Shown: piece after piece, positions 29,783-63,964 of the stretch | How the letters are laid out: each line of letters opens with the position of its first letter | Numbering within the stretch: position 1 is the stretch's first letter | IMG/VR virus record: IMGVR_UViG_3300045988_111421 | DNA: 64,000 nt | Direction: 5' to 3' (one strand) | Origin: a virus | Translations under genes and position numbers: made by a program | The notes under the pieces: model-generated | Told to the model about the DNA's origin: nothing | Database searches by the model: none | Seen by the model: the letters and a program-made list of their open reading frames with translations, nothing else

Positions 29783-30135
29783 ACAACAAGAGAAGAAAAA
29801 AAATATCGGATGTTATTAACAACGTAAATAAGTACGAAACAGATTTTGAATACATCAAATCAAAGTTATCGGAGTTGAAGCACAACATAAATTCAGCCAA
29901 AGATGATGTTGATATGATTTTAGACGAAGAGACTGAGGCGAGAGATAATATACCGGAATCGTTACAAGACTCAGAAAGATATTGGGAATCAGATCAGGCT
30001 GTAACTGATATGGAGGAGGTGGTTGATGGCATGGAAAGTATTATAAATGATATAGATGATGTGATTTCGACCATAGATGGGAGCATTAAAACCATAAATG
30101 GTTCTATTAAAGTAAATTTGGAAGGAATAATATAA
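29779..30135 (+). CDS. Acidic hypothetical protein (118 aa).
   Basis: ORF. Confidence 0.5.
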   Translation: MNNKRRKKISDVINNVNKYETDFEYIKSKLSELKHNINSAKDDVDMILDEETEARDNIPESLQDSERYWESDQAVTDMEEVVDGMESIINDIDDVISTIDGSIKTINGSIKVNLEGII

Positions 30136-36299: not shown

Positions 36300-36346
36300 A
36301 CAACAGTCCCCAACCATACAATAGGCGTACGGTTGGGGACTGTTGT
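36300..36346. terminator. Bidirectional terminator candidate: perfect 16-bp inverted repeat ACAACAGTCCCCAACC / GGTTGGGGACTGTTGT with a 15-nt loop, at the convergence point of the two blocks.
   Basis: Read directly. Lies between the last + gene and the first - gene. Confidence 0.65.
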
Positions 36347-37083
36347 CATATCGTAAAATTAAGTGTTTTTTCTAATATCAGGTATTCAGTATGAACTTTA
36401 CTTCCGTCATCATCTATCAAGTCCAAATTAATATAAGCTGTATATGATACATGATGATCACCAGGAGCAAGACGTTCCATTTCTGATAAGAACATAGAAT
36501 TTAAACCTTGGCCAGACCATGATTCTGGATATGGCAAAGGTGTAAAGTCGGCGTCTGTACATCTTACAACCCAAGTAAGATTAGGATCTGCCCTAACTAT
36601 TCTATCATGAGGTCCATCAATTACAAGATCTGGCATCTCATATTGGTAACTATCATAATTAAGGACAATAGGATCACCAAAGTTTACACCGTATATAGCA
36701 GCAGGTGGAGTAAAGCTTGTTATTAAAAAGGTTCTATTAATCCTATTGGTTGTTCTTAGCGTAAACTCATCAGGTACTATCACACTTACTCTAAATCCAT
36801 AATAAGGAGAGGTTGTTAAAGCAATAGCAAGAACCACCGAATCCTGTTCAAGCAATTCCTCTGTCGTATCAACCTGACTATCGATCTCTTGCCTATCTTC
36901 CATTGGAACACCGCCTTGGACACTTATGGAATCCAGCCGTTCTTTTTTAGACAGAAAGATAAATTGCCCACCCTGTGGAATGGTGCCTACTTTCTTTCCT
37001 TCTACGATTACCCCCCCCCCTATACAATCGCTAACTATCTTATACTCATATAGTTTAGCATTATTTTCAAATCTTCTTCTCAT
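36346..37083 (-). CDS. Hypothetical protein (245 aa), possible fibre/receptor-binding-type protein. Contains a G10 homopolymer in codons ~22-25.
   Basis: ORF. Fibre assignment rests only on its position at the end of the virion block. Confidence 0.55.
   Translation of the reverse strand: MRRRFENNAKLYEYKIVSDCIGGGVIVEGKKVGTIPQGGQFIFLSKKERLDSISVQGGVPMEDRQEIDSQVDTTEELLEQDSVVLAIALTTSPYYGFRVSVIVPDEFTLRTTNRINRTFLITSFTPPAAIYGVNFGDPIVLNYDSYQYEMPDLVIDGPHDRIVRADPNLTWVVRCTDADFTPLPYPESWSGQGLNSMFLSEMERLAPGDHHVSYTAYINLDLIDDDGSKVHTEYLILEKTLNFTI
37011..37020 (-). repeat. Homopolymeric G10 (C10 on the + strand) tract inside the 5' end of CDS 36346..37083. It encodes Gly-Gly-Gly.
   Basis: Ten consecutive C on the + strand, read directly. 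Flanks are AT-rich. Confidence 0.9.
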
Positions 37084-37087
37084 AATT

Positions 37088-37705
37088 TCATAAAATTAAT
37101 TCAGTAAAAGGACGGACATAATGTGAACTACCCCTTGAACCTGTATCCAAATGATCTCCTTGGATGTTTATATCATAATACCACGAATAGCTAAATTTTG
37201 TATTTCGAGTGGATGTCCACATTCTATTACTCATTATCGTACCTCCTACCATTAAAAGGCATTCGTTTATTTCATTCGCATACAATGATATCAAAAAAAA
37301 CTCTCCGGCTCCACCTACATATCCATTTTGACCATTTTTAAATAAATAGCTATTAGCTTTATTAAAAGCGTAATCTGTATTACTGGTATCATATTCAAGA
37401 TACGCATTCTGATTTTCACGCCCCCAATAATCCTTTTTAATAGTTCCCATATGAGAACTATCTTGTGCAAATATATTGTCTATTTCTCCATCCTTACCCC
37501 AACGAAATGTGCCAATATATTCGGTGGCTATAACAAAACACACTTTATCTACAAGAGCTATTCCATTGCATAGATCATTGGAATATCCTTTATTAGACCA
37601 ATTTTCTTTTGTATATAATCCTCCATCTACATGTTGGATGTATATGCCTTTATTGATTATAAGCGAGGGATTTACCCCCATCCCTATTTGAAATCTTCGT
37701 CTCAT
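37088..37705 (-). CDS. Hypothetical protein (about 205 aa from the ATG at 37705). Aromatic-rich C-terminus ending in SSHYVRPFTELIL.
   Basis: The track ORF extends to 37792, but the upstream part overlaps a hairpin. MRRRFQIG start chosen. Confidence 0.5.
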   Translation of the reverse strand: MRRRFQIGMGVNPSLIINKGIYIQHVDGGLYTKENWSNKGYSNDLCNGIALVDKVCFVIATEYIGTFRWGKDGEIDNIFAQDSSHMGTIKKDYWGRENQNAYLEYDTSNTDYAFNKANSYLFKNGQNGYVGGAGEFFLISLYANEINECLLMVGGTIMSNRMWTSTRNTKFSYSWYYDINIQGDHLDTGSRGSSHYVRPFTELIL

Positions 37706-37918: not shown

Positions 37919-40900
37919 CTATTTGTAACTAACGTCATCGTCTCCTTCCGAATCAGGAGTAGCGCCGATGAAGAACATCATTGACTTGTTGTTCGTCTGC
38001 TGCCACCAATTATAGGCGCGCGCTACGTCTTCCGGCGTCTTGATATTATACCATTGTTTGATAAACGTCTGTTTGGCGAGTTGCCTAAATAACTTAGACT
38101 CTCCCTTGTATGTACCGGATGTTACTTTATCAAGTGAATAATTCCTAAGATCGGTAAGATCCTTCAGTTTTCGCCCCATAACAAACGGATCGTTAATGAT
38201 ATCTACCACGTTAAGCTCCATAATAAACGGCATCTGTGAAGCTATTTCGTTTATGGTTCTGAATCCGACATAGGATCCAAATTGAGTAAGCCAACTTTCT
38301 TCGTTTTCATCATCATCACGCCATCCGGCAAGAAGCATAGATACGGCCTGCATGATAAGGAACGTGCCGGCATAGACACTGAGGTGTTTGAGATTAGTTT
38401 TTTCTACCTCATTCATATTGTCTTTATTTTCGTTCCAGGCATCTATGATGTTTTTCATACCAGACTCGGAAGCCAGGCTAAATGTTTTGGCTATCATATT
38501 CTTTAACGTAATTGACAACCCTTCCTCTTCTTGCATTGTCTGGAAATTGAAGCCACGTCTTTTCCACAGACGTTGAGCTGCCAGCACCAGCCAGCCTCGG
38601 TGGGCGGTCATGAACCTGGCTATCCAGTTGCGCGATGCGGCAGTTCGGTTTTCTTCATTCAAAGATCCGTTACATATCTGCGACAAGCTACGGACTTGAT
38701 TCCTGGTTATAGCCATCTGGGTTTCAACTTCCTCAACAGTAACACCCGATCCCGGCTTTACAACCACCTTTCCATCCACGACGTCTACCATACTCCATAA
38801 AGTACGATCTTTTAATGCGTTCCATTCTCTTTTTATGGTACTCTGTTCTTTATTGCGTTCTTTTTCCATCTTGAAATCTTGGAACGTGTAGAACCGGCCT
38901 TTGTAATAACGAACATTGTCCATAGTAGCAATCATAACCTGCGGATCAAGAGGGTAGTTCAGGATTTCCATAAAAGCATACATAGGCGAACGCATTAAGG
39001 TCCTGGCCGCTCTATTGTATCCGGCACCATACATACGATTTCGGATATTGAATATCCCCATTCTCTCACCTATGACATATAATTTGCTTTTCCTATCTAT
39101 GTCTCCGGTTTCTGCTATACAAGATGGCGCAAGACGCGAAAACTCAGCCGATGCGTATTTAAGGGAGTCTTTGCTTATATACTGTCCTACGGCAGATTCC
39201 ATGATGAGGTTGATATGACCTGTCAGGGCGCCGGTAGCTGCCACAAACGGAGACAGTGCCAAGTTCATAACCGACATAAATCTTTCAACAGCCATCATAA
39301 TTCTTGTAAGGTCTACCGTATATCCTCCGATGTTCACCGTAAGTTTTTTGGTGTTCATCCTAATGCCATAATAATGATCGTTGAAGAAGTCCCTGAACAT
39401 CTGATATGCTTGGGTTGCTTCAGCCTTCTTACCGCCCTCAAATTGTTTGTTCAGCAACATCTGCTCCAGTCCTTGGGCAAGCTCTATAGACTTCTGCTTT
39501 TCGTTGTATAACGATGACTGCATCATAAGCATCGAATAAGAGTAGCCAAAATCGTGAGATACATCATCTTGGTTCTCCAATTCATATATGTAGTATTTAG
39601 GTATAGACCTAAGTCTGTCTTCCGGGTCATATACTTCCCCTTGCCTGGTCTTACCATATAGAGAATCGTCTACTCTGTCCAGGCACAGATCTGATACAAA
39701 ATTACGAACCGTATTTTTGAAGTTAATACCCAATCCTTCCATACGTTCTATGTCTTGTTTTGATATCTGTGGAATAGCATACAAATTGGGACTCTGCTCT
39801 TTGTATAGATCAAGGGATTGTCTTTTTATTTCCTTGAGTTTTTGAATCATATTCCACTGCTCTACGTTTTTAGTAGCAACTTCATTACCGTCAGCATCAT
39901 ACTTGATACCAAAGTCATTGAAATACGATTCATCACGATACAGGCTTTTCTTAGGCATGCGATGACCATACCCATGATCTTTTACATAATCAGGATTACG
40001 GCCGCTATTTTCGGCTTCAGATTCAGCCACCCATGCCCTTGCAGGATCGAAAGACAGGTACGATATGTCCATGCCATAATCTTGGGTGGATGTACCGTTT
40101 TGTACGTCCTTAACCATCTGCGCCACATCTATCTCACCTCGACCTATTTTGTCGATCATGGCCGCATATCCGGTAGGCGCCATGCGTTTATAGTACGAAA
40201 AGACCTGGCTCCTGGCAAATTCATTAACGATATCGTTCACTTCAGCTACTCCGTTATCGTGTCCAAATATGTCAGACATCTTAGCTCTAACCACATTCCT
40301 AAAATCTCTACGATCTAACTTTTTATCTATTCCCAATTTTTCTGACAAGTAGTTGGTTTCAGAGACGGTAAACATATACCTGTTATCTTGAGCCATGAAT
40401 AACTTATCTCTAAGAGCCTGAATCCTTTTGGCTTTTTTGGCAGTAGTATGACGCTGTGCAAACTGCCATTCAATTTCCTTAGAGTCAGCAAGAGCATTTA
40501 AATAAGACTGATTGACTTCGTTTTCAGCTTTACTGCTTTTAGTAAGGTATTTATCAATATCTTCAAGACCCACCATCTTAGCATAATCTATCAAAATAGC
40601 GTAATCGGCTTCAATAGCTTCAGATGCGGCCCTAAAAGCATCTCTTTCAGATAAGGTAAATGTCGCTTCATTAATTTCTCCGATATCAGCCACATCGCGA
40701 TTGTTTCCGATTATTTCCTTGATAATAGCCTTATTTTTTTCTATATCTTTCACAACAGAATCCACGTCAGTCGCATCTCTATCACTTGTCGTAGAGCTAA
40801 TGATATCATGCGCCATTTTAAGATACGAAGCCTTGTTATTTGATTCGGTACGTGCCGACTGTTCCGATTCTACATCATTCCAAAACCGATCATTAAATGA

Positions 40901-43900
40901 CAGGTGACCTCCCAACATAAGTGTCTTCAGCGCAGCTTCTCCTCCCGACTCGTTCTGAATCGTTCTCAATTTTTGCAAAAACGATTCTGATACGGCATTA
41001 GTAACATTATTTGATTCCTTTCTCCAAACTTCATTTATGGCTTGTATTTCTTTAGCCATCTTAAGCTGGTCTCCGGTTTTTTCAACACGTCTGGTACCAA
41101 CATATATGTATTCCGAAGCTGCTTCCTTACGTTGTTTACGAAGCAGTCCTTCTTCTTCGTAATTGCTGCTTTTAAAATAGGCAACCTCATCAAAATTACC
41201 ACCGCTATCAATAAAAGGCTGTCTCAATATCCGTTTTTGCCGGGATAGGGCATTAAGGTATTCTTTGGTTGTTTGAGAAACCGGATGCCCTAATTCTTCT
41301 TCAGCCTTTTTGTATATGGATTCCATTCTTGTGGCATAACTTTCGCTAAATTCCAGTTCCGAATTTTCAGCATCCCACTTTTCCATCTGTTCTGTATAAA
41401 TCTTTTCCTGCTCGATGGTAAAAATATCGGTATTAACTCTATCAGACGATGGTTTGAATTTAGCGTTTTCAGTAACCGTATTTCCATCCTTGTCAATTAC
41501 TTCTCTTTTAAATACGTAATTACGGTTATTGTCAACCACATCACCAATTTCTTCTTCTGATATCTCTATGTTCATGGCAGTCGCAAACGCTCGCATCTGC
41601 GCCAGCTTCTTATTACGATCGTATTTAGCCATATCAAGAGCACTACGAAGGTAATTAGAAGTTTTGCCGTCTACTTTCTGAAGCAGTTTTTCAAATTCAG
41701 ATTTGTTAAAACCATGCTTTTTAGTATATGCCAGGAAGTCGGATATGGCGGGCTGGGCATTCACCATCGCATTGTAATTGTCTTTGGCAATCATAGCTCC
41801 AAGAGCGTTATTGAACGGACTGGAAGAATGCTCTAATATACCGAACCACCTACTTATCCAAGAGACATCATGTTGAACTTTGTCAAAAAATTCTTTTACT
41901 CTCTTTACCTTATCTGCCGGCACATGAAGTTCGTTCATTAACTTATCAAGCAACGTACTTTCATCAAGGTCTTGTACTGATTTAATATCAGATTGAATAC
42001 CATTGATGTCGGCAATGACGGTATTGATCCTATTTGTATAATCCTGCTTTTCACGTTCATCAAATTCGGTACTTCTGTTACGGATATATCCTCGAAGATC
42101 GTTCATGATCGGAAGAACCTGATTGTTGATAATATCTACGTTCTTTCGATCATTGGTATTGAAGTGAAGCTTACCGTCTTTGGTATCACCATGAAGGATG
42201 GTGTTCACCACATTGCTTAAGTATCTGACCTGAGCTTCGGCTGTGGAGATCATGCTGTTCATGGCAGCCGCCATCTCATTCTTGTCTATTTCGGTCTCTA
42301 CTTTATTTATCTTATCTTCTATGGTCTTAAGCTGCGCAAGGGTCATAGACGTAGTTACAGCCCTATCAGAGCTTATCTGACGTAAGTCTCTTAATGTTTT
42401 TCTTAGTGATCTGATCTTAGACTCAAGAAACTTGTTCTTGTTCATAGAAGAAAGGGAGTATAATGTAAAATCATTATCCTTTAACAGAGAGGTGTCAAAT
42501 CCTTTATCTATGTCGGTAATAGCAAGATCGCGAATGTTTTTAATAACGTTATTCAAATCTTGTCTTTGGGTTGATAAAGCTGATTTAAGCCAGCTTACGA
42601 TTCCAGAGAGAAGCTGCCGGACGCGCCCCAGGAAGGAGGTGGGCTCTACCGGCGCCTGTGCTGTGCCGGTCTGCATCTCCCTGGCGAGGATCTTTCCAAG
42701 AATTTCCCTCCTAACAGCATTATCAAGCTCAGCTCCTTCATATACCTTACCGTATGTATTATAATACTGACCTGCATATTGGTTCCACTCTTCCGTACCT
42801 TCTACATCTTGCAGAACAGCCTCAACAGCATTCTGATCTCTGTATGCCTCTACAAGGAAGTGGGCTGTTTCTTCTACTAAATCAGATAAAGTAGCATCTT
42901 CACCAACTGCTATTACGTTATTGGCAATATCCGCCAATGCCTTAGCAGAAGGTTCATGCCCGTATTTGGTTTGGTACTTCTCTATATAATCGGTCATACC
43001 TATGACACTAACGCCAAGCGTTTTCAGTATCTCGACAATAGAATTTCGTTGATCACGTTCCTGCCTGCTATAATCTGATACGATCTTAGCTTTAGTATCA
43101 GCATAAAGATCGTTGTCTTCTAATATGAATGAAACTACAAGCGCATCAAAATGATCGTACTTGGCGTCCAATTCATTGTATCTTCCTGACTTGAGATCGT
43201 TCTTTATCTGCTCTTTGCTAACCCTTTCCGTTCCTCCGGTAGCGAGCCTCATAGTTACCTTACTATTATCCAACGAGCTTATGGTTATCATACCCTGGTC
43301 GTTCATGGAAACATCTGAACCAAAATGATTACGGAGCTCGGTGTAGGATAAGGCTGAATTGAAAAGTCTAATTTGTCCTGTATGACCTTCTCCTGTAAGA
43401 TAATAGCTTCTTGTTTCAGGATCGAATATCTTAGATCCGGACAAAAGACCTTTCTTTATAAGGTAGTTAATTATCCCGCCTTTTGTTGATAAAGAAGTAG
43501 AAGCAGAAGCGGTCATGACCGGTATAAAAGATTTGGGATTATTAAGAACATACTTTCCAGCTTTGTAAGTAATGTCTGCCACGCCATTCACGGTAGATTC
43601 TTGAACGGTTCCTGATAAGAATCCTATTCTAATATCATTCCCGCCAGAGCGAAGAGCTTCTCCGTAATCTTCAAATAATTGACTACGATCGTTCATGAAA
43701 AACAAACGAGGCTCTCCAGTCTGATACGTTACACCCACAGGATTAGAATCTGTTTCTGGTAGCTCTTCTGGGCTAAATATCTTAAGACCGTCTTTTATAA
43801 CCATATAATTAACACCCTTATCCTGTACCATAGATACGGGAGTAAAGTCCGAAGATATAGCATCTTGTAGATACTGCCCGGCGTCTATTCCAGGTCCTTC

Positions 43901-44332
43901 CGGTACGGAAATGCTTGACGTAACCATAGCATCCACCAACATAATATTATCACCCAGATTTTGGCTGTAGAATCCAAAGCCCGATTCTTGGATTTCATAA
44001 GGTGCATCTGATTTTGACACAAGAACAGGGTTACTCATCTTAGACGCCTTATCCAGCACCCTTTCTCTATAGGCTTCTGGGATAAGGTCGATGTTAGATT
44101 TTACCTTATTATAAGCCTGTTTATTAACAGGTACATTCCTTCTCCAGTCACCAAAAGCCTTTAAGAACTTATTAGAAAATACGGTTTTAAAAACAGTAGT
44201 AGCCCGTTCCCTATTCTCCATAAGAGGAATAGATGCTATTTTATCAAACAACATAGACCTGTCCCCTGATCTGGTAGAGACAGAAACAACTTTCTTTTTA
44301 TTATCTCTTTTAATAATACACGTTGATGTCAT
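37919..44332 (-). CDS. Giant hypothetical virion-associated protein (2137 aa).
   Basis: Uninterrupted 6.4-kb ORF. No polymerase DxDGD-type motif found by eye. Confidence 0.8.
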   Translation of the reverse strand: MTSTCIIKRDNKKKVVSVSTRSGDRSMLFDKIASIPLMENRERATTVFKTVFSNKFLKAFGDWRRNVPVNKQAYNKVKSNIDLIPEAYRERVLDKASKMSNPVLVSKSDAPYEIQESGFGFYSQNLGDNIMLVDAMVTSSISVPEGPGIDAGQYLQDAISSDFTPVSMVQDKGVNYMVIKDGLKIFSPEELPETDSNPVGVTYQTGEPRLFFMNDRSQLFEDYGEALRSGGNDIRIGFLSGTVQESTVNGVADITYKAGKYVLNNPKSFIPVMTASASTSLSTKGGIINYLIKKGLLSGSKIFDPETRSYYLTGEGHTGQIRLFNSALSYTELRNHFGSDVSMNDQGMITISSLDNSKVTMRLATGGTERVSKEQIKNDLKSGRYNELDAKYDHFDALVVSFILEDNDLYADTKAKIVSDYSRQERDQRNSIVEILKTLGVSVIGMTDYIEKYQTKYGHEPSAKALADIANNVIAVGEDATLSDLVEETAHFLVEAYRDQNAVEAVLQDVEGTEEWNQYAGQYYNTYGKVYEGAELDNAVRREILGKILAREMQTGTAQAPVEPTSFLGRVRQLLSGIVSWLKSALSTQRQDLNNVIKNIRDLAITDIDKGFDTSLLKDNDFTLYSLSSMNKNKFLESKIRSLRKTLRDLRQISSDRAVTTSMTLAQLKTIEDKINKVETEIDKNEMAAAMNSMISTAEAQVRYLSNVVNTILHGDTKDGKLHFNTNDRKNVDIINNQVLPIMNDLRGYIRNRSTEFDEREKQDYTNRINTVIADINGIQSDIKSVQDLDESTLLDKLMNELHVPADKVKRVKEFFDKVQHDVSWISRWFGILEHSSSPFNNALGAMIAKDNYNAMVNAQPAISDFLAYTKKHGFNKSEFEKLLQKVDGKTSNYLRSALDMAKYDRNKKLAQMRAFATAMNIEISEEEIGDVVDNNRNYVFKREVIDKDGNTVTENAKFKPSSDRVNTDIFTIEQEKIYTEQMEKWDAENSELEFSESYATRMESIYKKAEEELGHPVSQTTKEYLNALSRQKRILRQPFIDSGGNFDEVAYFKSSNYEEEGLLRKQRKEAASEYIYVGTRRVEKTGDQLKMAKEIQAINEVWRKESNNVTNAVSESFLQKLRTIQNESGGEAALKTLMLGGHLSFNDRFWNDVESEQSARTESNNKASYLKMAHDIISSTTSDRDATDVDSVVKDIEKNKAIIKEIIGNNRDVADIGEINEATFTLSERDAFRAASEAIEADYAILIDYAKMVGLEDIDKYLTKSSKAENEVNQSYLNALADSKEIEWQFAQRHTTAKKAKRIQALRDKLFMAQDNRYMFTVSETNYLSEKLGIDKKLDRRDFRNVVRAKMSDIFGHDNGVAEVNDIVNEFARSQVFSYYKRMAPTGYAAMIDKIGRGEIDVAQMVKDVQNGTSTQDYGMDISYLSFDPARAWVAESEAENSGRNPDYVKDHGYGHRMPKKSLYRDESYFNDFGIKYDADGNEVATKNVEQWNMIQKLKEIKRQSLDLYKEQSPNLYAIPQISKQDIERMEGLGINFKNTVRNFVSDLCLDRVDDSLYGKTRQGEVYDPEDRLRSIPKYYIYELENQDDVSHDFGYSYSMLMMQSSLYNEKQKSIELAQGLEQMLLNKQFEGGKKAEATQAYQMFRDFFNDHYYGIRMNTKKLTVNIGGYTVDLTRIMMAVERFMSVMNLALSPFVAATGALTGHINLIMESAVGQYISKDSLKYASAEFSRLAPSCIAETGDIDRKSKLYVIGERMGIFNIRNRMYGAGYNRAARTLMRSPMYAFMEILNYPLDPQVMIATMDNVRYYKGRFYTFQDFKMEKERNKEQSTIKREWNALKDRTLWSMVDVVDGKVVVKPGSGVTVEEVETQMAITRNQVRSLSQICNGSLNEENRTAASRNWIARFMTAHRGWLVLAAQRLWKRRGFNFQTMQEEEGLSITLKNMIAKTFSLASESGMKNIIDAWNENKDNMNEVEKTNLKHLSVYAGTFLIMQAVSMLLAGWRDDDENEESWLTQFGSYVGFRTINEIASQMPFIMELNVVDIINDPFVMGRKLKDLTDLRNYSLDKVTSGTYKGESKLFRQLAKQTFIKQWYNIKTPEDVARAYNWWQQTNNKSMMFFIGATPDSEGDDDVSYK

Positions 44333-44422: not shown

Positions 44423-44474
44423 AAAAATGATATGAAAAAAAATTATAATCTGATGAAAAATCGTCAAGTTCAGC

Positions 44475-44867
44475 TTATATGTAATGCATGTACCCATCTC
44501 GGTGTATAAACCTTCCCGATTCAAAGCGCTCAATATCTTCAGGGCAAATAGGGCCCGAATCCTCTCTCCTGGCTTCAAACCAAAGCCCCGGCTTACGAAG
44601 TCGGCAAGTTATGATATAATTGAAGCAATTGTGCGTAAAATGGAAAACAGATCCTACAGGGAAATACCTATCAGCTTGAAATACGATTCTTTTTCGTTTA
44701 GTATCAAACGTGATATCTCCTACTATCTTAGCCACGTAATAGCTTCTGCCATTTAACGTTTCATCTGTTTGTGGTATCCAATAATAACCTCTTGCCATGC
44801 CACAAATATATAAAAAAAGTCGGACAAGATACATGTCCGACTTTATATTACTTTGATTCGTTTTCAA
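44475..44867 (-). CDS. Hypothetical protein (130 aa; possibly starts at the internal MARGYYW).
   Basis: ORF. Confidence 0.45.
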   Translation of the reverse strand: MKTNQSNIKSDMYLVRLFLYICGMARGYYWIPQTDETLNGRSYYVAKIVGDITFDTKRKRIVFQADRYFPVGSVFHFTHNCFNYIITCRLRKPGLWFEARREDSGPICPEDIERFESGRFIHRDGYMHYI

Positions 44868-46059: not shown

Positions 46060-46277
46060 TCTTTCTTGAACTTACCGTGCCACGTTCCAGGAACTACCAC
46101 CTCTTCGCCTCCCTTACTATATTCAATAGCGGCACATTCAGAACAAAGAGGCTTGCCTTCATATCCCTTTAGCGACTTATCGTAAATACGATTCTTACAA
46201 GGTCTTATAAGAGCCCAGTAATATGATGTGGCTGTATTATCTATACAGCCACATTTTGAACATACAAACAAGCTCAT
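46002..46277 (-). CDS. Zn-ribbon protein (91 aa; CSKCGC...CSEC).
   Basis: Cys pairs. ATGA overlap upstream. Confidence 0.5.
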   Translation of the reverse strand: MSLFVCSKCGCIDNTATSYYWALIRPCKNRIYDKSLKGYEGKPLCSECAAIEYSKGGEEVVVPGTWHGKFKKEWPTEEEKKHIGKNGILNL

Positions 46278-47140
46278 TCCGCAATCTCCCAGTCATTAGA
46301 CATAATATCATGTTCGGTTGGATTCCAATTTGATGCTACTTTTTGACCTGTATCTACCATCAATATATTTACGTCAGACATACAGATATACTTTTTACCC
46401 CAATCGATTCTTTTTATCTTACGACCTAATTTAAGCCGTTCTAAAGCCTGTTCGAATGTCATGCCACGACGAGGCAGTTTGAGATACTTTTTAAGTCTGT
46501 CGGCAGCTTCATTTGGTGTATGGCCATCGTATTCGAAAGCGGTTTCTCTTTCAGGAACATCAAACAAATCCCAGTATTTGCTTTCATAGTGATTAGATAC
46601 CTGACCGGTAGGTAGGATCGCCATCACAATAAACCAATCATCAGAACCGAAGCATTTTTCTCCGTCGCTGTGTCTCCTTGATTTGCAAACTTCAACCTGT
46701 CCGCTTCTGGCTAATAGATTAAAGAAGGCAGCGTTATACAACATGCGATACCTATACAATTCATTGAAAGTGTGGTATCCGTCAGAGACTTCTCCCACGT
46801 CTACAGGCTTCTTGTTTTGAATACTACCCAAAATGTTCTCTATATAGAGCTGTATTTTATACATACCCATTTCGGTGTGGCCGTATTTGTTCAAGATATT
46901 ATTGACATCGTATTGTATATTAAAATCTTTTTCAAATTCTACTTCAGGATGATTAGGATAGCAGTAGTCCACTGATGCTTCTAACACAGACTTTATGTGT
47001 TCTATTATCCTCGCAACATCATCATGTTTAAAAAAATGCTTAAATCTTTCAACGAATTTAATATCTTCGTTGATTGCTGATTCGAACTCTTCTTTTGTCA
47101 TCACTCTAATTACATCTTTTTTTAAATCGTCTAATCCCAT
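46274..47140 (-). CDS. 288-aa protein whose C-terminal ~85 aa resemble DUF2829 (Tad2-like) domains.
   Basis: MTFEQALERLKLGRKIKRIDWGKKYI ... NWNPTEHDIMSNDWEIAE, compared with my recollection of the DUF2829 pattern (F.EAL.ALK.GKK..R..W ... DWEIVE). Confidence 0.5.
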   Translation of the reverse strand: MGLDDLKKDVIRVMTKEEFESAINEDIKFVERFKHFFKHDDVARIIEHIKSVLEASVDYCYPNHPEVEFEKDFNIQYDVNNILNKYGHTEMGMYKIQLYIENILGSIQNKKPVDVGEVSDGYHTFNELYRYRMLYNAAFFNLLARSGQVEVCKSRRHSDGEKCFGSDDWFIVMAILPTGQVSNHYESKYWDLFDVPERETAFEYDGHTPNEAADRLKKYLKLPRRGMTFEQALERLKLGRKIKRIDWGKKYICMSDVNILMVDTGQKVASNWNPTEHDIMSNDWEIAE

Positions 47141-54537: not shown

Positions 54538-54951
54538 TTATGAAACTTCTATTTCATAATGCGAAGCCTCTGTCTCAACTATCAATCTTCCCTCTCCTTC
54601 GAACTCAACGCTATCATTTCCTGGACCAGTAACAAAAGGGAAATCAGATACGGATGTTACATAATCTCCAGAACCACCGGAGAAAGACTGACTTTTACTT
54701 TGTTTGTAATTGATAGTCAATTGTGTTTTACCTATCTGAAGAGTTCCAGATAAATTTTTAGTATAAGTAGTGGTAGTTGTAATATCCCCATTTTTATAAC
54801 AATACATTATAAAGGTGGTAACCGGACTCTTTTTTATATTACTATCCGGACCTGCATGATAAGATTCATTTCCTCCAAATATGCTATAAATGTGACAATA
54901 AGGACCGACTCTTTTACTTGAAGTTTTAGCCTTATCCTCGACTCCTTTCAA
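54538..54951 (-). CDS. Hypothetical protein (137 aa).
   Basis: ORF. Confidence 0.5.
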   Translation of the reverse strand: MKGVEDKAKTSSKRVGPYCHIYSIFGGNESYHAGPDSNIKKSPVTTFIMYCYKNGDITTTTTYTKNLSGTLQIGKTQLTINYKQSKSQSFSGGSGDYVTSVSDFPFVTGPGNDSVEFEGEGRLIVETEASHYEIEVS

Positions 54952-55117
54952 AGATATAGTAACCTTACTCTTGTATTCAATATCCTTCCAATTACAGACT
55001 CCTTCACTTACGTTTCCAACAAACCTGTCATCAACATAAACCTCTATATTCCCTGCTGATTGGTCTTCAACTGATACTGAACAAGACTTGAAACATCTTC
55101 GTATCTCCTTCTCATAC

Positions 55118-61837: not shown

Positions 61838-63964
61838 TTATTCCCTATTTACACTATTCAACAACTTCATCAACTTGCCGTTTTTATTCAAAGACGTAGG
61901 CAAATTACCTCCTTCTTTTGCTGCCACCATATCCTTAATCTCTTCTGTTATGGCTGCCACAACAAAATCAACTATTTTTTTCTGAGGCGCAACAGCAAGT
62001 TCTTTAGACACATTATCCGCAAACCATACATTAGGAGTATCAAACGAATCTATTAACTCAGGTTTACCATTCTCCATAAGATAAAGCCTTGTCTCATATC
62101 CATAACCGTAACTTGTCTTAGGATCATAACCTTCAACCTTTACACCAAGCTTTCCACTGTTATCCAATATATCTTTAGCTGCATTAAGAAGCCAAACCTT
62201 TTGTTCTGGCATATCATCTAAATTATTACCAGATTCATTTATCATATCCGATAACACTTTCATCATTGAAGATACAGAAGCATAAGCGGGTGATATATCT
62301 GAATTTTCAAGCATCTTCGGATACCACATATTGGTATCACTTCCAAATGTAGGTCTTATAATACCACTTTCATATCCACCTATATCGACGGAAGGAGTAT
62401 TAATACCAGGATCTATGCCATTATTTATCAACTCTGTTTCAGATACCTCAACAATATCTATTTCCTCTCTTTCACCAGTATGATTAGCAACCAAACTGTA
62501 AGTCTTCTCTCCATTGTCGGCTATTCCCGATTCTGTCAAAGAAAATGATTCAATAGTTGCCGATGATGATTTCGATTTACCAACAGGATGCTCTGCCATT
62601 TTCTTAGTAAATAGATCCCTGAGAACCCCCATCTCTCTATAACCAGCCTCCTTGGAGGTTAATTTGGTTGAATACGTTACTGTGTTAGGTGAATACAGTT
62701 CGAGATATTCTTTACGTATCTCATTTATACCATCATCTTGAACCTTAGTTATTTGATCAGCTATATTAATATCACTTACTGCATAGTTTCCAACACCCTC
62801 CATTCCACTAATAGAATACAGTGCATTAAAAAACACCTTTTCTTCACCATCCGAGAAACTATTTTTTACATCATCGTATTTTTTTAAGAAATACCTGCCA
62901 CTTTTGCTATCCCTCTCAAATACTTTAGATAAATCAATGCCATCATTTTTCACCCTCTTTCTTATAGTAGCTATATCAGCAGGCGAGAATCCTTTTTCAT
63001 AATATCTTACTCCAGATTCTACATCGCCGACTGTACCTCTATTTTTTCTTAAAATATCATTAAGGGATAACGCTGTAGCACGGGCTATATATTCTTCGGG
63101 TTTACCTCCTTCCTTCTGCGCGATCGCATTTGCTATTTCAGATACAATATTATCATAAATCTTATTCTCCTTCTTAATTCTATCATTCTCTATATCCATC
63201 TTGTCTACAGCGCTATTAAGCTGCATATAAGCATCTGTGGCAGCTTTTCTCTCTGCCATAGGTAGCTTATCAAACATATCATTAGAAAGACCTCCATTGT
63301 CCTTTATATACTTAAGAAGTTTTTCTTCATCCATAAGATACTTGTATCCTGATGTTTCATCCGTCATATTTCTTGATATGGCAGCTTGAATATTTTTCAT
63401 GTTTTCAGCACCAAGGGCCGTAGATAGTCTACTTCCGAATGTTACAAGATCTGTATATGCCTTATTAAACTTCTTATGAGTTTCTTCTGATATGCTAATA
63501 TTTTTAGTTTCGATAGGATTAGCTGAAATAGTTCCACCAGAGTTTGTGCCAACGCCCACCTGCATGGCTCGGCTTCCAGCTCTGCCGCCTGCCGCTCCTG
63601 CACCAGAGGACATAAGTTTTGCTATTCTGGCTTCATTAAGCCTATTCTGCATCTTCAGACGTTCTTCGTCTAATCCAAATCTGGCTTCATCCTTATTCTT
63701 ACCATATTCAAACTCTGCAATATCCCTATTTCTTTCATATTCAAATTCTATCTTCCATTTTTCGAAATTCAAATTAGCTAATCTTTCCCTCTGATTATAT
63801 TCTTTGGTTTTCCAGTAAAGCTCGTCGGCTTTGATTATGAAAGACGAATTATCATAAGCATATGAAGCAGCAGCATTATTAATAAAATTATTTTCAACAA
63901 CCTTCATCGCTCCAAGATACGGATCGTAAGTCCTTTCATCCATTCTGCTAAATTCAGATTTCAT
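61838..63964 (-). CDS. Hypothetical virion-associated protein (708 aa) with a Gly/Ala-rich segment.
   Basis: Long ORF 3 nt upstream of the giant gene. Another - strand gene continues beyond the window end. Confidence 0.7.
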   Translation of the reverse strand: MKSEFSRMDERTYDPYLGAMKVVENNFINNAAASYAYDNSSFIIKADELYWKTKEYNQRERLANLNFEKWKIEFEYERNRDIAEFEYGKNKDEARFGLDEERLKMQNRLNEARIAKLMSSGAGAAGGRAGSRAMQVGVGTNSGGTISANPIETKNISISEETHKKFNKAYTDLVTFGSRLSTALGAENMKNIQAAISRNMTDETSGYKYLMDEEKLLKYIKDNGGLSNDMFDKLPMAERKAATDAYMQLNSAVDKMDIENDRIKKENKIYDNIVSEIANAIAQKEGGKPEEYIARATALSLNDILRKNRGTVGDVESGVRYYEKGFSPADIATIRKRVKNDGIDLSKVFERDSKSGRYFLKKYDDVKNSFSDGEEKVFFNALYSISGMEGVGNYAVSDINIADQITKVQDDGINEIRKEYLELYSPNTVTYSTKLTSKEAGYREMGVLRDLFTKKMAEHPVGKSKSSSATIESFSLTESGIADNGEKTYSLVANHTGEREEIDIVEVSETELINNGIDPGINTPSVDIGGYESGIIRPTFGSDTNMWYPKMLENSDISPAYASVSSMMKVLSDMINESGNNLDDMPEQKVWLLNAAKDILDNSGKLGVKVEGYDPKTSYGYGYETRLYLMENGKPELIDSFDTPNVWFADNVSKELAVAPQKKIVDFVVAAITEEIKDMVAAKEGGNLPTSLNKNGKLMKLLNSVNRE

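Follow-up and report, generated by a model that had tools for sequence, protein, structure and literature searches.

A length-variable poly-G tract as a candidate phase-variation switch for an accessory gene in a gut phage lineage

We analysed a stretch of viral DNA of 64,000 nucleotides (IMG/VR record IMGVR_UViG_3300045988_111421; the whole stretch is hereafter called the window), in which a small minus-strand gene, P1, carries a homopolymer of exactly ten G residues close to its 5' end. The run reads as C10 on the plus strand (37011-37020) and stands on the minus strand in the context ...AAG ATA GTT AGC GAT TGT ATA GGG GGG GGG GTA ATC GTA...; the first-pass annotation, made from the letters of the window, had placed a G10 at just this site near the start of the last minus-strand gene, and the sequence confirms it. 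P1 is the final gene of a minus-strand block, with convergent plus-strand replication genes beyond it. Its stop codon borders a 21-bp hairpin that is likely a bidirectional terminator between the two gene blocks; this hairpin region aligns at 87.5% identity with that of phage csAssE-Sib (OR575929, 151 kb, human gut), to which the flanks are 94-98% identical. Two further genes of the window, P2 and P3, begin with the same MRRR[F/Y] residues as P1. P2 lies directly upstream of P1 and intervenes between it and the gene for a 2137-aa virion structural protein, so the first-pass placement of P1 at the distal end of the virion block, beside that giant gene, is right as to the end of the block and wrong as to the neighbour.

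The tract is conspicuous in its genome, as had been claimed. It is the sole run of six or more G or C in the 64 kb, at a GC content that we compute as 37.8% instead of the roughly 35% first given, and the chance expectation for runs of eight G is 0.59 per dinucleotide shuffle. GGG is the rarest glycine codon in the window genes (10.7% of Gly codons), the four other Gly-Gly-Gly tripeptides are all encoded by mixtures of GGA and GGT, and three consecutive GGG codons have a probability of about 0.001 from the codon usage of the window. A homopolymer of about eight or more G/C inside an open reading frame (ORF) is the form of a contingency locus, and the G10 tract has it. In silico, a G9 allele meets a stop at codon 25 and yields a product of 24 aa, because TAA then directly abuts the tract, while G8 and G11 give products of 44-45 aa, and G7 and G13 keep the P1 frame as G10 does. 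The proposed truncation after about 25 residues on a slip of one base in either direction is thus accurate for G9 but not for G11.

Tract length among relatives, the comparison by which the switch had been proposed to be checked, was scored in three samples, with ON (in frame) and OFF (out of frame) counts taken from direct translation of the alleles. For IMG/VR, the DNA of 80 contigs was used and the 75 alleles with the anchor sequence were scored; 31 are in frame and 44 out of frame. Pure tracts in this sample comprise G10 in 22 alleles (21 with an intact ORF), G9 with a TAATCG flank in 23 and G8 in 8, and there are also sub-families in which G9 is the in-frame length. A flank-anchored pattern scan of a separate metagenome collection (ENA/MGnify) gave 20 contigs, 7 ON and 13 OFF, with tracts of G8 (4), G9 (7), G10 (5), G12 (1), G7AGG (2) and G9AGG (1); 15 of the 20 have no identical-flank counterpart in IMG/VR. 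The OFF contigs in ENA include some at 10x, 12x, 14x, 39x and 150x coverage (L235, L242, L243, L244, L246), depths at which the consensus withstands Illumina indel errors in a 10-mer. The third sample consists of a divergent cassette allele from the same phage lineage, here called P0123-type, with G10 in five ON alleles, G9 in nine and G11 in one OFF allele, and G5AG4 and G6AG3 ON. The tract thus ranges from G8 to G12 across 112 alleles, G9 is the commonest allele in all three samples, and P1 is OFF in about 60% of related genomes.

The same variation can be read from proteins. A protein search retrieved 225 homologues, all unannotated, with N-termini of the forms CIGGGV, CIGGEV and CIGGGEV, and others of 226-227 aa that begin MYRGG(G)V or MYRGGEV and are without residues 1-19 (P0078, P0084-P0087 and others), because the gene caller starts at a TTG just upstream of the tract in G9, G12 or G8AGG alleles. 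Identical alleles recur in IMG/VR, ENA and Logan-derived proteins.

Changes of tract length occur between very close relatives. Contigs L087 and L139 are 0.29% diverged and carry G10 and G9; identical 1.2-kb flanks surround G10, G9 and G12 in L087, L240 and L239, and G10 and G9 in L096 and L249. On a 73-tip neighbour-joining tree of the 8.2 kb around the gene, the frame changes at least 30 times, against 31.2 +/- 2.3 with the tips shuffled, while 4-fold degenerate sites of P1 take 0.45 parsimony steps per site; frame state is without phylogenetic signal. Run length also matters: alleles whose longest run is 7 or less (G5TG4, G5AG4, G6AG3, G7AGG) are without exception in frame (9 of 9), as are 36 of 103 with runs of 8 or more (Fisher p = 1.6e-4). 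The G8AGG and G9AGG alleles are out of frame, so an interrupted tract still slips. As controls, a T8 at 29796-29803 varies in 0/37 loci and an A7 at 40734-40740 in 0/77, but the T8 within P2 varies in 23%; the variation is therefore locus-specific, unlike a general homopolymer assembly error.

In 42 of the 44 OFF alleles the tract is the only lesion, and the downstream ORF of 221-223 codons is intact. The P0123-type cassette encodes 244 aa with 40% aa identity to P1 and contains an identical TGTATA-G10-TAATC. The two types share 67-73% aa and 73-80% nt identity over residues 1-60, and 7-53% aa identity per 15-residue block over residues 61-245. Since the same tract and the same polymorphism are found in so diverged a cassette, most homologues do not encode the Gly run in interrupted codons, an outcome that the first-pass annotation had set against itself; the runs of 7 or less make up 9 of the 112 alleles. 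Given the rare GGG codons, the diverged cassette and the scarcity of short runs, the tract is kept against codon usage and beyond the protein sequence.

Altogether, we consider it probable that slipped-strand mispairing at G10 causes reversible frameshifts that toggle P1, and the wide length variation among related genomes bears out the ON/OFF frameshift switch first proposed. During replication, the nascent and template strands would mispair within the homopolymer, and one or two G's would be gained or lost at a rate far above that of base substitution. Lengths of G10, and also G7 and G13, would leave the 245-aa frame open, and G9, G8 and G11 would impose an early stop; because the rest of the ORF is intact, later slippage can restore P1 expression. 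Phage populations would then consist of an ON and an OFF part with respect to a dispensable Ig-like protein of two domains, of which the N-terminal module is conserved while the C-terminal domain evolves fast and is exchangeable; such a mixture may have adaptive value as bet-hedging. As P2 and the divergent cassette allele have the same design, several accessory proteins could toggle independently.

Table 1. Features of the P1 locus and related sites (window positions unless csAssE-Sib is named).
Feature	Position	Strand	Remarks
G10 homopolymer	37011..37020	-	codons 22-24 (GGG x3, Gly22-Gly24) and first base of codon 25 (Val25)
P1, candidate switched gene	36346..37083	-	245 aa, ATG start, ON in window (G10)
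P1 N-terminal module	36904..37083	-	residues 1-60; predicted small beta-sandwich starting MRRRF
P1 C-terminal domain	36349..36873	-	residues 71-245; predicted Ig-like/FN3-type beta-sandwich, variable
Alternative TTG	37025..37027	-	predicted start, picked by gene callers in G9/G12 alleles
21-bp hairpin	36300..36346	-	starts at last base of P1 stop codon; -37.4 kcal/mol, z = -8.8
P2, MRRRF-headed	37088..37705	-	205 aa, ON in window; upstream of P1, stop 4 nt from P1 start
G5 run in P2	37675..37679	-	ATA-GGG-xxx-GGG-GTA-A site, equivalent to P1 tract
T8 run in P2	37293..37300	-	T7 or T9 in relatives that vary
P3, MRRR[Y]-headed third paralogue	54538..55115	-	directly after 2238-aa gene; frameshifted (OFF) in window
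G3 in P3	55051..55053	-	switch-equivalent site
MRRR[F/Y] heads, window	37083, 37705, 55115	-	gene starts
MRRR[F/Y] heads, csAssE-Sib record	63285, 64017, 92029, 109702, 110324		five genes
2137-aa protein	37919..44332	-	phrog_37651 'virion structural protein'

According to structure models, P1 would consist of two generic Ig-like beta-sandwich domains, and the Gly run would form the turn between strands 2 and 3 of the N-terminal module. No Pfam or PHROG family covers P1, with no Pfam Ig, BACON or PKD match; the PDB holds no sequence relative, and GenBank phages gave no match. An exhaustive phmmer search of 1.84 billion proteins yielded no more than 37 representatives, several of which share just residues 1-60/90 and continue into other C-termini. 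Residues 179-231 and 11-74 weakly resemble repeats of giant Bacteroidota surface proteins with SprB, CarboxypepD_reg, BACON or T9SS-sorting (type IX secretion) domains. The most fitting description of P1 is that of a modular Ig-like accessory protein which the phage can do without, and for which a surface or adhesin role is plausible by analogy; no proteomics data for this phage lineage were found in the literature. A few residues past the Gly run, the N-terminal module holds a small hypervariable patch (codons 29-31, 36985-36999), G-K-K in the window and RKK, RTN, EKN, RMN, GNN, KSN and others among homologues. Three other readings of the sequence were rejected: a lipoprotein or signal peptide at MRRRF...C, after which there is no hydrophobic stretch; a G-quadruplex, as there is one G run only; and a target of a diversity-generating retroelement (DGR), given that the surroundings hold no template repeat and that the variable region does not have the C-terminal lectin fold.

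The first-pass annotation had suggested that P1 is a receptor-binding or fibre gene whose tract toggles host range, which we regard as unlikely. As far as sequences tell, P1 does have the layout of a receptor-binding protein, in that its N-terminal module is conserved and its C-terminal domain diverges and can be exchanged; the head module occurs on other C-termini, cassettes are swapped between relatives, substitutions cluster in hotspots, the predicted fold and the similarity to repeats of Bacteroidota surface adhesins are adhesin-like, and P1 lies downstream of a virion structural gene. A functional assignment, however, brought no homology to any receptor-binding, fibre or spike family, and the monomer model is not fibrous. 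P1 is outside the tail/baseplate module: in csAssE-Sib, the annotated tail-fibre, BACON and carbohydrate-binding genes, together with a DGR, lie at 31-62 kb, more than 45 kb from the P1-equivalent position near 110 kb. Since csAssE-Sib lacks P1 and about 60% of genomes have it OFF, P1 is not the essential receptor-binding protein, and the host-range claim is left unsupported.

Unlikely too, in our judgement, is that P1 is a dispensable gene often broken at a mutable tract, the OFF alleles being young pseudogenes and the mutability unselected. The high share of OFF genomes would agree with such tolerated decay, as would the complete absence of P1 from csAssE-Sib, the variability of other A/T runs in accessory genes, and the state of P2, which is disrupted in 43% of relatives by frameshifts in its T8 and G runs and sometimes by internal deletions. 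The ratio of nonsynonymous to synonymous substitution rates (dN/dS) of P1 is 0.6-0.96 and likewise agrees with it. This test showed no purifying selection for P1, and expected and observed nonsense mutations were therefore compared: about 12 events are expected at the neutral rate of 4-fold sites and 0-2 were observed. Changes at first codon positions exceed those at third positions (166 against 107, counts that recombination may inflate), with hotspots at residues 98, 149, 172-174 and 238, and this pattern of few nonsense events, first-position excess and clustering appears to fit diversifying selection better than decay. Against decay stand also the missing second lesion in 42/44 OFF alleles and the frame state, which is random over the tree and marks no dead clades. 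Moreover, the tract is uninterrupted in two cassette types of 40% identity, though a single synonymous change would stabilise it.

A graded output in place of a strict switch, with high expression from G10, low expression from a leaky G9 and none from G8, seems improbable, and would in any case be compatible with the phase switch. In G9, the stop codon abuts the slippery run (ATA GGG GGG GGG TAA) and the -1 frame is the native frame, so that a -1 ribosomal slip with TAA in the A site would read GTA ATC and make the exact ON protein; RNA-polymerase slippage could have the same effect. G9 is the most frequent allele in all three samples, an excess for which the contraction bias of slippage accounts equally well, and no downstream stimulatory structure is present but for a weak 5-bp hairpin (36967-36979).

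That the tract is in truth invariant, its G8, G9 and G10 calls being homopolymer errors of short-read assemblies, is very improbable: all contigs are consensus sequences, some at very low coverage (L239, G12, 1.1x; L231, G8, 1.4x), the P1-OFF and P2-OFF states are weakly associated, and error too would make longer runs more variable, but OFF calls stand at 10x to 150x, changes of -2 (G8) are frequent, the T8 and A7 runs that these contigs carry in other genes do not vary (0/37, 0/77), and the same alleles recur across IMG/VR, ENA and Logan-derived proteins.

Several points weigh against a phase switch all the same. P1 is without an assigned function, and therefore no phenotype can be attached to the switch. 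The dN/dS values appear compatible with relaxed constraint as well as with diversifying selection, and the frequent loss of P2, internal deletions included, suggests that the region tolerates loss. P2 and P1 show each of the four combinations of state (ON/ON 22, ON/OFF 19, OFF/ON 9, OFF/OFF 22), with only a weak association of their OFF forms (p = 0.054) that could reflect assembly quality, and several other runs of seven or eight A/T vary too, by 18-33%. All evidence comes from consensus assemblies, so heterogeneity within a population and true reversibility within lineages are read from differences between genomes.

The two paralogues of P1 have G runs at the equivalent site. In P2, the run in relatives is G6 (10), G4 (2) or G9 (2) out of frame and G8 (3) in frame, and in L161 the site is an exact ATA-G10-TAA motif. 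In the window, P3 reads MRRRYEDVSSLVQYQLKTNQQGI up to a stop at codon 24, and its body goes on in another frame. In relatives the P3 site is G4 or G5, in frame in about 58 of 68, and G9 in one relative, which is OFF; the short runs are thus mostly stable, as slippage predicts.

The locus past the giant gene is a cassette array. The window has the arrangement [P2][P1]; csAssE-Sib has [P2] followed by an unrelated 149-aa gene, with the break at about codon 7 and P1 absent; and L250-L266 have the P0123-type alone. In L114 (IMG/VR contig 129625, at about 10000) the G run is where the P2 head MRRRFQIGMG passes into the P1 body in a fusion, with P2 deleted and a G5 in frame, and L125 (IMG/VR contig 114765, at about 10000) has the same fusion out of frame with G9. 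The MRRR[F/Y] start (ATGAGAMGAAGATWT) occurs in three genes of the window against 0.27 expected, and heads several small genes whose bodies share no homology; candidate roles are those of a fold element, a tag for virion or cargo targeting, a context for initiation and a boundary for recombination. In the complete genome of csAssE-Sib, the sole long G/C run is an intergenic G11 (63256-63266; L268 13256-13266), 19 nt upstream of an MRRRF-headed gene for a 240-aa glycine-rich protein; this run may be a promoter or 5' untranslated region type of switch.

A broader reading, which we offer tentatively and hold to be less probable than not, would make the cassettes a multi-gene combinatorial system, in which every MRRR[F/Y] cassette would have a homopolymer of its own to toggle it, be it a G run within the head module or a G11 shortly ahead of the start, and the cassettes would be reshuffled by recombination at the conserved head and tract. 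Some cassettes directly follow giant virion-protein genes, and recombination would proceed as in the L114 and L125 fusions and the swapped cassettes. A non-lysogenic gut phage could thereby show 2^n combinations of Ig-like or adhesin-like proteins, with G9 possibly a leaky intermediate, and so counter the phase-variable capsules or protein-sensing defences of Bacteroidota hosts.

The lineage appears to be one of gut phages of about 150 kb that are distantly crAss-related, their membership in Crassvirales being unproven, and its hosts are probably Bacteroidota. The csAssE-Sib record uses crassvirus annotation terms (portal, ring, muzzle) and is classified only as Caudoviricetes. The 2137-aa protein can be aligned to the structural protein of Cellulophaga phages phi17:2/phi4:1 across 87% of its length, at 22% identity, and its match to crAss-like cr52_1 and others is confined to the C-terminal 10-31%. 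Its homologue in csAssE-Sib (103085-109487; L001 10399-16801) is annotated as two overlapping coding sequences, which points to a frameshift or sequencing error there, because in the window the gene is a single unbroken ORF. Roughly 100 nt ahead of the start of the 2137-aa gene, an A8 on the plus strand (T8 on the minus strand; 44435-44442) is T7-T11 in relatives, 33% being non-modal, and two T7 runs (44812-44818, 47030-47036), each close to the 5' end of another ORF on the minus strand, vary by 18-23%. A 288-aa protein (46274-47140, minus strand) contains a WDGH domain (E = 1.7e-36) as well as a Tad2-like Thoeris anti-defence domain (E = 7.6e-11), which makes it a probable anti-defence gene product. 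The DGR of csAssE-Sib (L267 43837-47816) is annotated with variable region (VR), template repeat (TR), IMH and reverse transcriptase on a putative tail fibre, and the lineage therefore has a second, different diversification device elsewhere.

Poly-G/C contingency loci are well known in bacteria, in surface-protein and glycosyltransferase genes of Neisseria, Haemophilus, Campylobacter and Helicobacter. As in those loci, the homopolymer is about 8 or more long and lies towards the 5' end of an ORF whose ON/OFF state depends on the frame while its downstream part stays intact; tract length does not follow phylogeny, and several loci switch independently of one another. The present locus differs in being virus-borne and phage-replicated, so that switching would be sampled per burst and not per cell division. 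The DGR on the csAssE-Sib tail fibre (43.8-47.8 kb) is likewise a phage-encoded diversifier of an accessory or host-interaction protein in the same genome type, but there a reverse transcriptase rewrites adenine-templated codons of a C-terminal variable region, whereas a G tract would toggle the frame with no dedicated enzyme.

Among phages, hypermutable poly-G tracts are known from Campylobacter phages of the Fletchervirus type (Sorensen et al. 2021, Cell Rep 35:109214, cited in PMC12823448 and PMC10877375). They too reportedly have a poly-G inside a phage gene that changes length and gives ON/OFF subpopulations in an otherwise AT-rich genome; they are myoviruses of another host phylum, unlike the crAss-related, podovirus-like gut phage considered here, and their tracts were experimentally shown to affect receptor-binding phenotypes, whereas the evidence here is comparative. 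In T2/T4 and other phages, simple sequence repeats in ORFs of non-essential genes undergo reversible +/-1 frameshifts by polymerase slippage and are read as bet-hedging contingency loci (Gomez, Barrick & Waters 2025 preprint, PMC12633550), as proposed here. Those repeats are mostly poly-A of 6-9 with mutant frequencies of about 1e-4 to 1e-1 in laboratory lysates (PMC12633550), whereas the present G10 is the single extreme tract of its region and natural consensus genomes stand at about 40:60 ON:OFF. T4 Hoc and the BACON/Ig-like adhesins documented in gut phages (PMC13370021) are, like P1, dispensable beta-sandwich proteins and are proposed to bind glycans, mucus or cell surfaces; P1, in contrast, belongs to no sequence family and is known here from its gene and predicted fold. 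Our literature searches gave no report of poly-G or homopolymer switching in crAss-like phages, and nothing on csAssE-Sib. The mechanism is thus already known from bacterial poly-G loci, with phage precedents, and the case in a crAss-related gut phage is new.

Three things stand out here: the strong signal in natural populations, a tract that has been conserved between deeply diverged alleles, and several MRRR[F/Y]-headed cassette genes that switch independently of one another. In practical terms, gene callers mis-annotate such alleles as proteins of 221-227 aa or as pseudogenes, and the tract state offers a ready marker by which to follow phage subpopulations through longitudinal metagenomes. 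In bacteria, phase variation is textbook matter, but phage-encoded contingency loci have been documented only recently, in Campylobacter and T-even phages; its signature is seen here in natural populations of a widespread, uncultured phage lineage of the human gut. The hosts of such phages persist via phase-variable capsules, and a matching stochastic switch on the phage side would therefore matter for how gut phages and Bacteroidota coexist over the long term.

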